From a virus (taxonomy: Duplodnaviria; Heunggongvirae; Uroviricota; Caudoviricetes), in IMG/VR virus record IMGVR_UViG_2563366831_000005: a DNA stretch of 17,162 bases. One strand, written 5' to 3'. The notes under the pieces were generated by a model. It saw only the letters and a program-made list of their open reading frames with translations. It made no database searches and had not been told where the DNA came from. Positions 1 through 5,880 of the stretch are shown piece after piece. Numbering within the stretch: position 1 is the first letter of the stretch; each line of letters starts with the position of its first letter. The position numbers and the translations under genes are program-made.

Positions 1-569
1 GTGCCGGACGGTCGACGGGCCCATAACGCCTGCTCCAGTGCATCCAGCACGAATGTCGTTTCCATGGACGATGAGACCCGCCACCCCACGATGTATCCGG
101 CAAACACATCAATGATGAACGCCACATAGACGAAGCCCCGCCATGTGCTGACGTAAGTAAAATCAGCCACCCACAGCTGGTCAGGTCGTTCTGCCACGAA
201 CTGACGGTTTACGCGGTCGCCTGCGGCAACGGCTTTCCGGCTGATGGTCGTACGGACCTTTTTACCCCGGAGAACACCGGCAAGTCCCATAACCGCCATG
301 AGACGTGCCACAGTGCATCTGGCCACTCTGATACCTTCCCGTAACAACTGACGCCAGACTTTACGCACACCGTATACCTTGTGATTTTCATCGTATACGC
401 GCTGTATCTCTTTCTTCAGCCAGTCATCGCGCTGCGCACGGGCACTGCGTTTATCCGGATGATGTCGCTGTTGCTGACAGTGGTAATACGTTGACGGGGC
501 AATATGCAGTTCGCTGCATAGCGGTCCGACCCCGTACTGCTCACGCAGCTTATCCAGCAGTGGCATCAT
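1..569 (-). CDS. IS3-family transposase OrfB (DDE integrase domain), 3' end beyond window
   Basis: Minus-strand translation from ATGATG at 569-564 reads [72 protein letters not shown]...[57 protein letters not shown] and stays open to position 1. It is absent from the ORF track only because it has no stop inside the window. Confidence 0.85.
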
Positions 570-892
570 TTTTTCCAGAGGCGGTCGAACTCCGCCTTCG
601 CAAAATAAGCGGAAGCCTGGCGAAGGATATCGTTACTGCGGCGCAGTTCACGATTTTCACGTTCCAGCTCTTTCAGACGCTGACGTTCAGCGGTGGTGAG
701 CCCTCCATCACCACCCCCGGTATCCCGCTCATGCTGGCGAACCCAGACACGCAGAGTCTCCGGCGTACAGCCAATCTTTGGAGCAATGGAACAAATTGTC
801 GCCCATTGTGAGTCATATTCGCTCTGACTTTCCAGAACCATACGGACTGCCCGTTGACGGACTTCGGGGGAAAAACGAGTATTTTTAGTCAT
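566..892 (-). CDS. IS3-family transposase OrfA (helix-turn-helix / leucine-zipper protein)
   Basis: 108 aa [60 protein letters not shown]...[34 protein letters not shown], typical OrfA. Its TGA stop overlaps the orfB ATG. Confidence 0.9.
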
Positions 893-946
893 CCTGTTTA
901 CCTCTTTCTCAGGAAGTTTAGTCTCCAGGATTCCCGGGGCGGTTCA

Positions 947-988
947 GAAATTAAAGCTAAGTTCGGACTGAAAGGAGCAAGTGTATGA
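947..988 (+). pseudogene. 3'-terminal remnant (13 codons) of the phage replication gene (P position in lambda), cut off by the IS
   Basis: The frame ending in TGA at 986-988 overlaps the ren ATG at 985-987 as ATGA, the P/ren junction architecture of lambda. The open frame (EIKAKFGLKGASV*) begins exactly at the IS terminus. Identity as P is inferred from position only. Confidence 0.4.
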
Positions 989-1275
989 AGGGCAAAGAGG
1001 CAATTATTCATTACCTGGGGACGCATAATAGCTTCTGTGCGCCGGACGTTGCCGCGCTAACAGGCGCAACAGTAACCAGCATAAATCAGGCCGCGGCTAA
1101 AATGGCACGGGCAGGTCTTCTGGTTATCGAAGGTAAGGTCTGGCGAACGGTGTATTACCGGTTTGCTACCAGGGAAGAACGGGAAGGAAAGATGAGCACG
1201 AACCTGATTTTTAAGGAGTGTCGCCAGAGTGCCGCGATGAAACGGGTATTGGCGGTATATGGAGTTAAAAGATGA
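985..1275 (+). CDS. ren: Ren (Rex-exclusion resistance protein), lambda-like
   Basis: 96 aa, MKGKEAIIHYLGTHNSFCAPDVAALTGATVTSINQAAAKMARAG...; matches lambda Ren in length and sequence as recalled. Sits directly upstream of the tR2-like terminator and ninB. Confidence 0.85.
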   Translation: MKGKEAIIHYLGTHNSFCAPDVAALTGATVTSINQAAAKMARAGLLVIEGKVWRTVYYRFATREEREGKMSTNLIFKECRQSAAMKRVLAVYGVKR

Positions 1276-1300
1276 CCATCTACATTACTGAGCTAATAAC

Positions 1301-1333
1301 AGGCCTGCTGGTAATCGCAGGCCTTTTTATTTG
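1301..1333 (+). terminator. Intrinsic terminator, tR2-like (between ren and ninB)
   Basis: AGGCCTGC (1301-1308), loop tggtaatc, GCAGGCCT (1317-1324), then TTTTTATTT. Same position as lambda tR2. Confidence 0.6.
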
Positions 1334-1348
1334 GGGGAGAGGGAAGTC

Positions 1349-1789
1349 ATGAAAAAACTAACCTTTGAAATTCGATCTCCAGCACATCAGCAAAACGCTA
1401 TTCACGCAGTACAGCAAATCCTTCCAGACCCAACCAAACCAATCGTAGTAACCATTCAGGAACGCAACCGCAGCTTAGACCAAAACAGGAAGCTATGGGC
1501 CTGCTTAGGTGACGTCTCTCGTCAGGTTGAATGGCATGGTCGCTGGCTGGATGCAGAAAGCTGGAAGTGTGTGTTTACCGCAGCATTAAAGCAGCAGGAT
1601 GTTGTTCCTAACCTTGCCGGGAATGGCTTTGTGGTAATAGGCCAGTCAACCAGCAGGATGCGTGTAGGCGAATTTGCGGAGCTATTAGAGCTTATACAGG
1701 CATTCGGTACAGAGCGTGGCGTTAAGTGGTCAGACGAAGCGAGACTGGCTCTGGAGTGGAAAGCGAGATGGGGAGATCGGGCTGCATGA
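1349..1789 (+). CDS. ninB: NinB (Orf-family recombination protein)
   Basis: 146 aa from ATG 1349 (MKKLTFEIRSPAHQQNAIHAVQQILPDPTKPIVVTIQERNRSLDQNRKLWACLGDVSRQVEWHGRWLD...), preceded by a GGGAGAGGGAAG ribosome-binding site. The track's start at 1331 is a TTG extension. Confidence 0.9.
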   Translation: MKKLTFEIRSPAHQQNAIHAVQQILPDPTKPIVVTIQERNRSLDQNRKLWACLGDVSRQVEWHGRWLDAESWKCVFTAALKQQDVVPNLAGNGFVVIGQSTSRMRVGEFAELLELIQAFGTERGVKWSDEARLALEWKARWGDRAA

Positions 1790-2313
1790 CTATCAAATCA
1801 AATACGCCAGCACACGACAAGGACTGCTGGCAAACGCCGCTTTGGCTTTTTGATGCACTGGATATTGAGTTTGGATTCTGGCTGGATTCGGCAGCGAGCG
1901 ACAAAAATGCTCTGTGTGCTCACTGGCTAACTGAGGCCGACGACGCGCTCAATTCTGAGTGGGTAAGCCACGGTGCAATCTGGAATAACCCACCGTACAG
2001 CAATATCAGGCCGTGGGTGGAAAAAGCTGCTGAGCAGTGCATACAACAGCGACAGACGGTAGTTATGCTTGTGCCAGAGGATATGTCAGTCGGATGGTTC
2101 AGCAAGGCTCTGGAGAGTGTCGACGAAGTTCGCATTATCACTGATGGACGGATTAATTTTATCGAACCATCGACAGGGCTGGAGAAGAAGGGAAACAGCA
2201 AAGGCTCCATGCTGCTGATTTGGCGACCGTTCATCAGTCCTCGACGGATGTTTACTACCGTATCCAAAGCGGCATTGATGGCGATCGGGCAGGGCGTCAG
2301 GAGGGCGGCATGA
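1786..2313 (+). CDS. Phage DNA N6-adenine methyltransferase (Dam-type, orphan)
   Basis: ATG 1786 overlaps the ninB stop (ATGA). The product [31 protein letters not shown]...[16 protein letters not shown]... carries the NPPY catalytic motif of N6-adenine methyltransferases. No restriction endonuclease partner is nearby. Confidence 0.8.
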
Positions 2314-2486
2314 GGCGACAGCGACGAAGTTTCACCGACATCATCTGCGAAAACTGCAAATACCTTCCAACGAAACGCTCCAGAAATAAACGCAAGCCAA
2401 TCCCAAAAGAATCTGACGTAAAAACCTTCAATTACACAGCTCACCTGTGGGATATCCGGTGGCTAAGATATCGTGCGAGGAAATGA
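2310..2486 (+). CDS. ninE: NinE
   Basis: 58 aa [58 protein letters not shown]; its ATG overlaps the methyltransferase stop. Matches lambda NinE as recalled. Confidence 0.8.
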
Positions 2487-2830
2487 CAATGGATTATTCA
2501 CAGTTAAGTGATTTTGAAATTAACAGAATGGTAGGAGACATAATTTTTAAAGGCCTTTGGGCAAGTAAACCGGAAACATCAGGGAATAACACCAACAAAT
2601 GGTATTACGGAAATGCTGATACAACTTTTGAGCCATTAAATCATTTGCCTGACTACTGCAATGATCCGAGCGCTTCATGGCCGATTATTGAGAAATACAG
2701 GATTTCTATCTTAGACCAGTTAACTGAATGGTGTGTGGATGCAAAAGGCGTAAGCCCAATATTTGATACCAGACCTCTCCGCGCCGCCATGATTGTCTTT
2801 CTCCTGATGCAGGAGGCCAATAATGCTTAG
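2483..2830 (+). CDS. NinX-like nin-region protein of unknown function (P22 NinX family position and size)
   Basis: 115 aa from ATG 2483, overlapping the ninE stop (ATGA): [89 protein letters not shown].... Visibly more AT-rich than the flanking genes. Family name is from memory and tentative. Confidence 0.55.
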
Positions 2831-3017
2831 CCCATCTCAATCCCTTCAATACCTGAAAGGAAGCATAGAGCGGGCTTCAATGTGCACAGAGTGGATTCTA
2901 TCTAGGTTTAGCGCATACAGAAGATTGCCGGTAAAGGGCATGCCAAGCAAGTCGATGCTGCATATGCAAAAGAATGCGCGCTGGAAGGTATGGCGAGAAC
3001 ACAGTTTATCTGGCTGA
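2823..3017 (+). pseudogene. Chimeric ORF: NinF-like N-terminus running out of frame into a ybcO-like remnant
   Basis: ATG 2823 lies 6 nt after AGGAGG (2811-2816). The first ~18 codons, [18 protein letters not shown], resemble the lambda NinF N-terminus. The rest (…ILSRFSAYRRLPVKGMPSKSMLHMQKNARWKVWREHSLSG) has no recognisable family and overlaps the ybcO-like frame out of phase. Confidence 0.35.
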
Positions 3018-3040
3018 AAGAGGGGGTTATTAAGGCGTGA
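2951..3040 (+). pseudogene. 3' remnant of a ybcO-like (DUF1364-type) nin gene, no start codon
   Basis: The frame ending TGA 3038-3040 overlaps the rusA GTG and reads ...[29 protein letters not shown], matching the C-terminus of DLP12 YbcO as recalled. Upstream the same frame hits TAG at 2909-2911 and the similarity is lost. Confidence 0.4.
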
Positions 3041-3399
3041 ATACCTACAATATCACATTACCCTGGCCGCCGAGCAATAATCGCTATTACCGCCATAATC
3101 GCGGGCGCACGCACATCAGCGCAGAGGGGCAGGCATACCGCGAAAACGTCGCCCGAATCATTAAAAACGCAATGCTGGATATCGGCCTGGCTATGCCTGT
3201 GAAAATCCGCATTGAGTGTCACATGCCGGATCGCCGTCGCCGTGACCTGGATAATCTACAAAAGGCCGCTTTTGACGCACTCACCAAAGCAGGTTTCTGG
3301 CTGGATGATGCTCAGGTCGTTGATTACCGCGTTGTGAAGATGCCGGTTGTCAAAGGTGGAAAGCTGGAACTGACCATCACTGAACAGGGAGATGAATGA
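3037..3399 (+). CDS. rusA: RusA Holliday-junction resolvase
   Basis: 120 aa, [103 protein letters not shown]...; GTG start. Essentially the E. coli prophage RusA sequence. Confidence 0.9.
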
Positions 3400-3536
3400 T
3401 GTTTGAGTTTTATATGGCAGAACTTCTTCGCCACCGCTGGATGCGCCTGCGCTTATATCGTTTCCCCGGTTCTGTTTTGACCGATTACCGAATACTGAAG
3501 AATTACGCCAAAACACTGACAGGAGCAGGAGTATGA
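3396..3536 (+). CDS. ylcG: YlcG-like small protein (46 aa)
   Basis: ATGATG at 3396 overlaps the rusA stop. The product [46 protein letters not shown] matches DLP12 YlcG as recalled. Below the ORF track's length cutoff. Confidence 0.55.
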
Positions 3537-3621
3537 AGTCAGAGATAACAATCAACTAATACTGTTTTGTTGATTTTTGCTTGTAATTGGCGTTCTGGTC
3601 TGAGTTTTGTGGAGTAAGTTG

Positions 3622-4005
3622 ATGCGTGATATTCAGATGGTTCTTGAGCGTTGGGGAGCGTGGGCGGCTAATAATCATGAAGATGTGACCTGGTCGTCCA
3701 TTGCCGCCGGTTTTAAGGGATTAATTCCTTCAAAAGTAAAATCTCGCCCACAATGTTGTGACGATGACGCGATGATCATTTGCGGGTGCATGGCCCGTCT
3801 GAAAAAGAACAACAGCGATTTGCATGATTTATTAGTAGATTATTATGTAGTCGGTATGACATTCATGTCACTGGCAGGTAAGCATTGCTGCTCTGATGGT
3901 TATATCGGGAAAAGGTTACAGAAGGCTGAGGGCATAATTGAAGGGATGTTAATGGCATTAGATATCCGGTTAGAGATGGATATCGTTGTTAATAACTCTA
4001 ATTAA
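3622..4005 (+). CDS. Q: Late-gene antiterminator Q (DLP12 QuuD / phage-21-like type)
   Basis: 127 aa from ATG 3622 ([60 protein letters not shown]...), GGAG ribosome-binding site at 3611-3614. Cysteine cluster consistent with a zinc-binding Q. Sits immediately upstream of the late region. Confidence 0.8.
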
Positions 4006-4145
4006 TATGCCAATTATTTACTAAAAGTTATTAAAAATGGGGCGTTGAGACGCCCCCAAAAATAAAGGGTAATATATAACAGAAGGTTTATATAGTTAGA
4101 AGCAAGGTTGTGCTTCTAAAGGAAGTGGCTTGAGGGAGCCACTTA
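4006..4145 (+). promoter_or_regulatory. Candidate late promoter / Q-utilisation region (PR'-qut position)
   Basis: Position immediately downstream of Q, as in lambdoid phages. AT-rich with TTGAGA and TAATAT/TATATA hexamers, but I could not assign a convincing -35/-10 pair with canonical spacing. Confidence 0.25.
4039..4056 (-). terminator. Intrinsic terminator on the minus strand (distal terminator for the porin transcript)
   Basis: GGGGCGT (4039-4045), loop tgag, ACGCCCC (4050-4056). On the minus strand it is followed by ATTTTTAATAACTTTT; on the plus strand the tail is A-rich, so it is minus-specific. Confidence 0.4.
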
Positions 4146-4185
4146 TATGTTGGGGAGGCAACGCCTCCCGCAACATATCTTTTTC
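4146..4185 (+). terminator. Strong intrinsic terminator on the plus strand (tR'-like, downstream of Q)
   Basis: 15-bp interrupted stem: ATATGTTG-GGGAGGC, loop AAC, GCCTCCC-(g)-CAACATAT (4146-4179), followed by CTTTTT (4180-4185). Abuts the porin stop codon at 4195-4197. Confidence 0.55.
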
Positions 4186-4194
4186 GTAATCAGA

Positions 4195-5292
4195 TTAGAA
4201 CTGGTAAACCAGACCTACAGCAACGATGTCATCAGTGCTTACACCGAGTGCTTTAGTGAAGTCATTTTTGTCAAGCAGGTTGATTTTGTAATCAACGAAA
4301 GTAGACATATTTTTGTTGAAGTAATAGGTTGCACCTACATCAACATATTTGACTAAGTCCTGATCGCCCCATACTCCAAGATCCTTACCTTTAGATTGCA
4401 GGTAAGCAACGGACGGACGCAGACCGAAATCGAACTGATATTGTGCAACAGCTTCGAAGTTTTGGGCTTTATTAGCAACGAAGTGATCAGCAAATACAGT
4501 CATATTCTGGGTTTCAGAATAGGTAGTGGCCAGGTAAATGTTGTTAGCGTCATATTTCAGACCTGCGGCCCAAACTTCTGCATTTTTACCGGAAGCAAAT
4601 ACTTCAGGAAGAACTTTCCCTGCATTAACTTGAGTGTCGGTACGATCAGATTTCGCATAAGTTGCACCGATACCGAATCCTTCGTATTCATAGGTAGCAG
4701 AGAAACCGAAGCCATCACCGTTACCTTCAGTGTAGTTATCGAAATCGCTACGATCGTTTTTGCCTTGGTACTGAGCAGCAAAGTTCAGACCATCAACCAG
4801 ACCAAAGAAGTCGTTGTTACGATAGGTTGCAACACCAGTGGTGCGACCAGTCATGAACACATCTGTTTGGGTCCAGGTATCGCCACCGAATTCTGGCAGA
4901 ACGTCAGTCCACGCACCGATGTCGTATGCTACACCGTAGTTACGGCCGTAATCGATTGAGCCGTAGTCACCGAATTTCAGGCCTGCAAATGCAAGACGGG
5001 TTTTGTCTTTGGAGGAACCTTGAGATTCAGCGCGGTTGCCTTTGAATTCATATTCCCACTGACCGAAACCAGTCAGTTGATCGTTGATTTGGGTTTCACC
5101 TTTGAAGCCAAGACGGGCATAAGTAGTATCACCATCATCTGCATCATTAGAGGAGAAGTAGTGCTTGGCATTAACTTTCCCGTACAGATCCAGCTTGTTA
5201 CTGTCTTTATTATAAATTTCAGCTGCCTGAGCAGACATCGCCATCAGTACTGATGCAGCTACAGCAGAAATTGCCACTGTTAATTTTTTCAT
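4195..5292 (-). CDS. nmpC: Phage-encoded OmpC-family outer-membrane porin (NmpC/Lc type), intact
   Basis: 365 aa with a signal peptide ([23 protein letters not shown]|AEIYNK) and typical porin sequence through the C-terminal ...VGLVYQF. Uninterrupted by any IS. Confidence 0.9.
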
Positions 5293-5880
5293 CGTGAGCC
5301 CTTTTTTTTGAACTATTATTAAAAAATGATGTCACTGCGCGATAAATATTCATCTAATCAATGTGATTATTTCAAGATGTAAGTTTTAGTTTCTCATTTA
5401 ATTTGTGAAGTAGATCTCTATTTTTATCTGAACTTTTTCTATCGAAACCTATTTATGGCTCTTATTTGAACAAAAATAAACCTATTAGCTAATTTATATT
5501 AATGGTTGTTATTTATGGAGGTTCTATAATTCAGCAGTTTAATTTAAATCAACTAAAAATAACGTCTGAAATTATTTATTGGTTATTTGTTGAGGTTTTC
5601 TTATGTATTTGTGGTGGTGTTTTGAACACTCGGTAGCATTCTCATAAATATCATTCAGTGGTTTACGTACGTAAAAAATTGGTTATGCTGTTAAGAGTGG
5701 TTACTTCGTCACACAGCTTAAACCCGCCGTCGAGCTGGTTTTTCCATTTTTTGAGTCTCGATATTAGCTGATAACTCAATACCTGAGTTATTCACTGACT
5801 CCGAGTCTGTTACGTTTCTGCTTTTTTGCGATACGTTGTATTCCCTCAATTTACACCCGCTTTGTCTGCGAGGTGGGGTT

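Follow-up and report, generated by a model that had tools for sequence, protein, structure and literature searches.

Lambdoid phages are mosaics in which novel joints and gene remnants are general, as in comparisons of the HK97, HK022 and HK620 type. Closest to the locus studied here are the nin regions of the K-12 prophage DLP12, of Salmonella phages L, ST64T and P22, and of the Stx1 phages AU6Stx1 and SH2026Stx1. The DLP12 module, which is also found in phages 3W and Turner, reads ninE-ybcO-rusA-ylcG-quuD-nmpC, whereas phage L reads ninE-ninX-ninF-orf101-ybcO homologue-rusA, and we regard ninE-ybcO-rusA (K-12, 3W and Turner) and the phage L order as the intact parental arrangements. In the Stx1 phages, ninF is disrupted by a moron. 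Here, we compared these systems with the segment between ninE and rusA of an IMG/VR virus record (IMGVR_UViG_2563366831_000005), the whole 17,162-nt stretch of which is referred to as the window. In our judgment, this segment is quite probably a neutral scar in which a phage-L/P22-type block and a DLP12-type block are connected through two non-homologous joints.

The window is part of a lambda-like E. coli prophage. From position 945 onward, a prophage of E. coli CP55_Sichuan matches it at 100% identity, and the 3' end of lambda P together with ren and ninB matches the window from 945 at 99.4% identity. The left end is occupied by an IS3-family element, which had no match to K-12 IS3C and whose orfA presumably resembles that of IS629/IS1203. 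Because this element meets replication gene P at its 3' end (position 945), this copy of the prophage is probably defective, having lost O and P. At the other end, the sizes of the ORFs to the right of the lysis genes suggest lambda-like head genes. The porin gene between quuD and the lysis genes is intact (365 aa, nmpC/ompD-like), whereas its K-12 equivalent is interrupted by IS5, and the adjoining stretch at 5300-5600 has a GC content of just 24-30%. The features of the window are listed in Table 1.

Table 1. Features of the window, in order from the left end, with emphasis on the segment from ninE to rusA.
Feature	Position	Strand	Description
IS3-family element	1-944		Adjoins gene P
orfA of the IS3-family element	566-892	-	
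ALIL frameshift pseudoknot of the IS3-family element	495-611	-	
ren-like gene	985-1275		
tR2-like terminator	1301-1324		
ninB			
Dam-type methyltransferase gene			
ninE	2310-2486	+	58 aa; Pfam NinE, E=3.4e-42; annotated as NinE by PGAP
ninX	2483-2830	+	115 aa from ATG 2483, or 113 aa from ATG 2489 (PGAP start); stop TAG 2828-2830
AGGAGG ribosome-binding site of the former ninF	2811-2816	+	6 nt 5' of ATG 2823, within the 3' end of ninX
Chimeric ORF	2823-3017	+	ninF leader, filler X and out-of-frame ybcO 3' end; TGA 3015-3017
ninF' segment	2823-2877	+	P22/phage-L-type ninF codons 1 to about 19; homology fades over 2878-2885
Filler X	2878-2950		About 65-73 nt (left limit 2878-2886), between ninF' and 'ybcO
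'ybcO pseudogene fragment	2951-3040	+	Last 30 codons of DLP12-type DUF1364/YbcO; -1 frame relative to the chimeric ORF
rusA	3037-3399	+	120 aa, GTG start; Pfam RusA, E=2.1e-22; also called by PGAP; first intact gene 3' of the scar
ylcG			
quuD			
Porin gene	4195-5292	-	
Lysis genes			

From 2951 rightwards, the window is 95-99% identical to the DLP12 module (97% over 2951-4261 for K-12), and the likeness covers the ybcO tail, rusA with its GTGA overlap, ylcG, quuD and the porin gene. However, the window lacks the first 67 codons of ybcO, which presumably encode the His-Me finger nuclease core, and carries ninX, ninF' and X instead; its ninE is of the lambda/P22 type (95% identical to lambda ninE and 97% to P22 ninE) and not of the K-12 type. 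Conversely, ninE, ninX and the first 19-21 or so ninF codons of phages L, ST64T and P22 are colinear with the window at 93-97% identity, and the ninX is the same allele as in phage L, but the window ninF is cut before its zinc-ribbon domain, and neither orf101 and the 5' two-thirds of ybcO of phage L nor ninG of P22 are present. As in other lambdoid mosaics, the switches from >90% identity to none are abrupt, homology at the joints is almost absent, and remnants are tolerated in the non-essential nin region. We found no difference in kind, except that two joints are stacked here inside genes and not at gene boundaries.

The 115-aa ORF upstream of the scar is a full-length NinX and a normal resident of the position between ninE and ninF. 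An earlier note on this DNA, made from the sequence alone, had called it NinX-like, and in fact it matched Pfam PF10765 (NinX/DUF2591) with 62 bits (cut-off 22.6) over profile positions 1-114 of 114, and PHROG 444 with E=7.6e-44. Nearly all of the 930 homologues of its product also carry PF10765. The gene order and overlaps are those of P22 and Salmonella phage L, with ATG 2483 of ninX overlapping the TGA of ninE as ATGA. Sequence searches retrieved no related solved structure for NinX, and the literature that we found mentions it in genome annotations only.

The earlier note had also described this ORF as more AT-rich than its neighbors, which is correct: its GC content is 40.6%, compared with 51.7% for the window and 46-52% for the neighboring genes. 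This composition favors a reading in which a single illegitimate or homeologous crossover joined two nin gene sets and imported ninX as cargo. However, ninE-ninX-ninF' (2316-2885) is colinear with phage L, whose ninF is intact, at 95% identity over 570 nt, and P22 shares 93-97% DNA identity with the window over 2316-2525 and 2676-2885. The most AT-rich part of ninX is its 5' end (2489-2525, 24% GC); because this part lies inside the stretch shared with P22 at 97% identity (2316-2525), the low GC content is a trait of the ninX allele and family, not a sign of recent import. In addition, ninX alleles are mosaic in themselves, which also speaks against the gene as cargo. The central block at 2526-2675 is unlike P22 and matches the allele of phages L, ST160 and Bp96115 at 94-95%, a pattern that points to intragenic mosaicism common to E. 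coli and Salmonella phages. The NinX family alignment contains conserved N-terminal, central (DYCNxP..WPII) and C-terminal blocks with allele-variable segments between them. The proposal that ninX was the cargo therefore does not hold.

In other genomes, downstream genes have become joined in frame to the N-terminal half of this NinX allele (proteins P0030, P0033 and P0098), the partners being a phage-L-type YbcO C-terminus, a PF11134 protein and a Q antiterminator. Each fusion goes back to a separate deletion with its start inside ninX, and together they show how often the nin region decays.

The ORF that follows ninX, of 64 codons, begins as ninF and does not continue as ninF. Its 8-nt overlap with ninX and its AGGAGG site, which was rightly noted earlier as a strong one, are identical in P22. 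Similarity to P22 NinF (BLASTP) amounts to 16 of 22 identical residues and is limited to residues 1-22; the NinF start given in the earlier note fits P22, whereas lambda NinF starts differently. We found no Pfam (to E<=10), NCBIfam or significant PHROG family for this ORF, and so it is not a full-length member of a known family, an outcome that would have spoken against a chimera. The NinF domain PF05810, a Cys-rich zinc-ribbon core, spans residues 20-44 of P22 NinF and 18-42 of lambda NinF; as positive controls, these proteins scored 50 and 47 bits, respectively, whereas the chimeric ORF gave no match at E<=10. The missing part is exactly the NinF zinc-ribbon domain, and the domain search gives no support to the name NinF for the product. 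The stop codon of the ORF lies directly before the Shine-Dalgarno sequence of rusA (GAGGGGG, 3020-3026), and 20 nt separate it from the GTG.

This Shine-Dalgarno sequence sits inside the retained tail of ybcO, which is read in another frame and ends on the rusA start, as had been proposed. The frame is identical to residues 68-96 of K-12 YbcO at 27 of 29 positions; its TGA overlaps the rusA GTG at 3037 (GTGA). A start codon is lacking, and the frame is closed by the TAG at 2909-2911 that the earlier note had pointed out, and by a further TAG at 2903-2905. At the DNA level, homology to K-12 DLP12 begins exactly at 2951 (95.7% over 650 nt), confirming a similarity whose absence would have undermined the earlier account, and the fragment is 98.9% identical to the intact ybcO of phage Turner and many E. 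coli genomes. Both this match and that of the NinF start are far beyond chance. Against the Pfam YbcO family (PF07102), the fragment aligned with profile positions 62-92 of 92 and scored 17.2 bits, below the cut-off of 29.9, compared with 145 bits for intact YbcO; PGAP annotates 2951-3040 as a DUF1364 domain-containing pseudogene that is incomplete and missing the N-terminus. YbcO is classified as a His-Me finger nuclease with a solved structure (3g27; PMC5714182). Judging from the alignment, its Cys/His-rich core (residues ~13-60) has probably been lost, as residues 68-96 only are retained.

To place the breakpoints, we used BLASTN together with register alignments, with P22, lambda, K-12 DLP12 and phage L as references. 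The comparison with the lambda, P22 and DLP12 nin regions that the earlier note had suggested yielded two breakpoints, at about 2878-2886 and about 2950-2957. Homology to phages with an intact ninF (P22, L, ST160, Sf101, mEp234, VT1-Sakai and others) ended at 2885 in BLASTN, and the register alignment indicated that it decays from 2878. Relatives with an intact ybcO start to match at 2951, which corresponds to ybcO codon 68, or at 2957. Little is shared at either point: approximately 7 of 10 nt at 2878-2887 for the first joint, and at most 5-7 nt of microhomology at 2951-2957 for the second (GTCGATG vs. GTTGACG vs. AACGATG). Between the joints lies filler X, for which neither lambda, P22 and K-12 DLP12 nor the rest of the window gave a match. 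BLASTN searches with X and with the longer Stx-type sequence (word size 7, E<=5), in which DLP12, lambda, P22, AU6Stx1 and the remainder of the window were the targets, yielded only chance matches of 10-15 nt.

These results alter the earlier interpretation of a recombination joint between two different nin gene sets. A non-homologous scar with a chimeric ORF and a dead ybcO fragment is present, but it contains two joints with about 70 nt of X between them. Moreover, the two gene sets are not mutually exclusive: because phage L carries both, the ninX/ninF and ybcO/rusA sets can coexist. A single crossover would account for the ninF-like and ybcO-like ends, which are both present and out of frame with each other, but not for a third sequence between them that has its own history in Stx1 phages. 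Together with the evidence on ninX described above, this makes a single crossover with ninX as its cargo very improbable.

The history of X is visible in the Stx1 phages. X is 87% identical to AU6Stx1 (positions 2488-2588 of locus L006), where it is attached to ninF at the same point; AU6Stx1 and SH2026Stx1 thus share the ninF'/X joint and about 80 nt of X with the window, and the joint also occurs in 250 complete E. coli genomes. However, X continues in the Stx1 phages into 2.8 kb of AT-rich DNA, followed by an HNH gene and ninG, whereas in the window it runs straight into 'ybcO; furthermore, the ninF leader of the Stx1 phages is of the lambda type and usually has a stop at codon 4. AU6Stx1 ceases to match the ninF of lambda and P22 at the equivalent of window position 2877. 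The 2.8-kb insert (28-38% GC) replaces approximately positions 50-150 of lambda ninF and contains a reverse-strand ORF of 590 aa with no Pfam family; to its right, the 3' end of ninF resumes, followed by the HNH_3/AP2 gene and ninG. Because X runs in the Stx1 phages into this AT-rich insert within ninF, X appears to form the left end of a moron whose insertion displaced the middle of ninF. X has a GC content of 47%, compared with ~30% in the rest of the moron, and could derive from an element that predates the moron. Within the AU6Stx1 moron (463-3237 of locus L130), a run of TTTCTA repeats is located near the right end, and an HNH_3 + AP2 homing-endonuclease-like ORF (3212-3817 of the same locus) directly follows the moron, starting on the ninG N-terminus.

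No third context of X was found. An 18-mer scan of IMG/VR for X retrieved 118 loci, namely 82 of the window type and 36 of the Stx type, plus one chance match. When one genome from each of 185,579 species was scanned with a split 22-base X pattern, the one locus retrieved was a window-type contig from E. coli, and distant BLASTN searches of phage and E. coli collections retrieved X in no further setting. A match in E. coli AST198 that starts inside X at 2932 at first seemed a candidate, but it reflects a secondary deletion of a window-type prophage. In that strain (2361-2609 of locus L129), which carries the prophage remnant at the ybhC-side attachment site, the deletion extends from an ea22-like gene into X and leaves int-xis...'ybcO-rusA.

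Taking these observations together, we propose the following history for the scar. A phage-L/P22-type ninE-ninX-ninF block forms the left part and a DLP12-type ybcO-rusA-ylcG-quuD block the right part. The moron would have been inserted into ninF first, cutting it after about codon 19 and attaching the foreign sequence of which ~70 nt remain as X (joint 1, about 2878-2886). Subsequently, illegitimate recombination or a deletion from ~70 nt inside the moron to the 3' end of ybcO would have joined X to ybcO codon 68 (joint 2, about 2950-2957); this order of events is our inference. Lost are the zinc-ribbon core of NinF and the N-terminal two-thirds of YbcO, probably with its nuclease core, while NinX, RusA and the rusA ribosome-binding site are intact. 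The old ninF start would still drive translation of the 64-codon read-through, which ends before rusA, and presumably only the rusA signals matter. NinG and any equivalent of orf101 are absent from the window arrangement. An intermediate of the form ninF'-X-moron...ybcO-rusA was not among the 36 Stx-type IMG/VR loci: none had ybcO or rusA, and HNH-ninG was located downstream in all 36. Because no intermediate appeared among these loci, the second event may have been recombination between phages and not a deletion, or X may have another origin.

We also considered whether X itself could be a functional non-coding element, such as a small RNA, a terminator or a protein-binding site. X has been kept in two lineages with different right-hand neighbors, and a predicted hairpin connects 2880-2885 with 2910-2915. 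This inverted repeat (ATGTGC...GCGCAT) straddles the ninF'/X joint, and in an alignment of two sequences it still pairs in the Stx-type copy by virtue of one compensatory double change, from G-C to A-U. However, the folding z-score of X was +0.75, i.e., X is no more stable than shuffled sequence, and because of this the pairing is probably a matter of chance. Rfam contained no match for X, and no promoter- or terminator-like site was detected in 2800-3040. Additionally, the two versions of X differ by 12-13%, whereas the flanking ninE is 99% identical, and X was found in E. coli only in the scan of one genome per species. A coding role fared no better, as none of the six frames, compared by eye between the versions, was conserved or showed mostly synonymous changes. 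A non-coding function of X is, on this evidence, extremely improbable.

Whether the chimeric ORF has acquired a function of its own requires more consideration. Because the ribosome-binding site of ninF and the overlap with ninX have been inherited, the ORF is most likely translated. It might encode a microprotein that arose with the joint, or might be kept open as a leader needed for rusA expression. The leader mode, which we rate as the more plausible of the two, would bring translation to 20 nt before the rusA GTG and provide coupling or Rho protection after the stop/start coupling between ybcO and rusA had been lost. Such a role would explain why the ORF is constantly open and persists in ~10% of complete E. 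coli genomes. The strong Shine-Dalgarno sequence, the overlap with the ninX stop, the position of its own stop just upstream of the rusA Shine-Dalgarno sequence, and its presence in viable phages are all in keeping with a function. The ORF is open in 80 of the 80 window-type IMG/VR copies examined, with 64 codons in all but one, in which an in-frame 18-nt expansion gives 70. The latter locus carries three tandem copies of the 9-nt ninF-leader unit CAATCCCTT (equivalent to 2838-2846).

Sequence variation, conversely, gives no sign of constraint on the protein. Among these 80 copies, 14 of the 19 variable sites in the ORF are nonsynonymous, and the ninF'-X stretch shows 10 changes between the window and the Stx-type version, 7 of which are nonsynonymous in the frame of the ORF. 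We thus detected neither purifying selection nor protein-level constraint in these alignments. The C-terminal third is ybcO read out of frame, family matches are lacking, a TAA at codon 4 interrupts the counterpart in 32 of the 36 Stx-type copies, and rusA has a Shine-Dalgarno sequence of its own. The openness of all 80 copies is compatible with weak selection that keeps the ORF open, but the absence of nonsense changes is not significant, since by our estimate ~40% of neutral histories with so few mutations would show none. Overall, a functional new small gene seems unlikely. The ORF is most probably a by-product whose protein has no role of its own, although it could possibly act as a passive leader that holds ribosomes on the message as far as rusA.

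A programmed -1 frameshift from the chimeric ORF into the ybcO frame also seems unlikely to us. The heptamer A AAG GGC at 2933-2939 fits the pattern X XXY YYZ by eye, but it is broken (GAC) in the Stx-type copy, and no stable structure was predicted. To our knowledge, this heptamer is not a known efficient frameshift site.

The window arrangement is common. It was found in 560-569 of the 5426 complete E. coli genomes at 98-100% identity and in 27 phage records, including those of the isolated phages ev099, ev243 and mEp332; because isolated phages carry it, the scar is compatible with phage viability. The 64-aa product of the chimeric ORF forms a protein cluster of 83 sequence variants, the most frequent of which occurs on more than 850 contigs, and is named 'protein ninF' in many NCBI, UniRef and RefSeq-phage records. 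Because the NinF domain is absent from this product, the name is a propagated mis-annotation and should not be propagated further. For other parts of the region, public annotation exists already: NinX is recognized as a family, and the DUF1364 stretch as a pseudogene.

The scar is an ordinary case of lambdoid mosaicism combined with gene decay in the dispensable nin region, and as one more example of mosaicism it carries little weight for biology in general. Nevertheless, its stacked joints tie lambda-like gut coliphages to P22-like phages of Salmonella and to Stx1 phages, and could be used to mark lineages.
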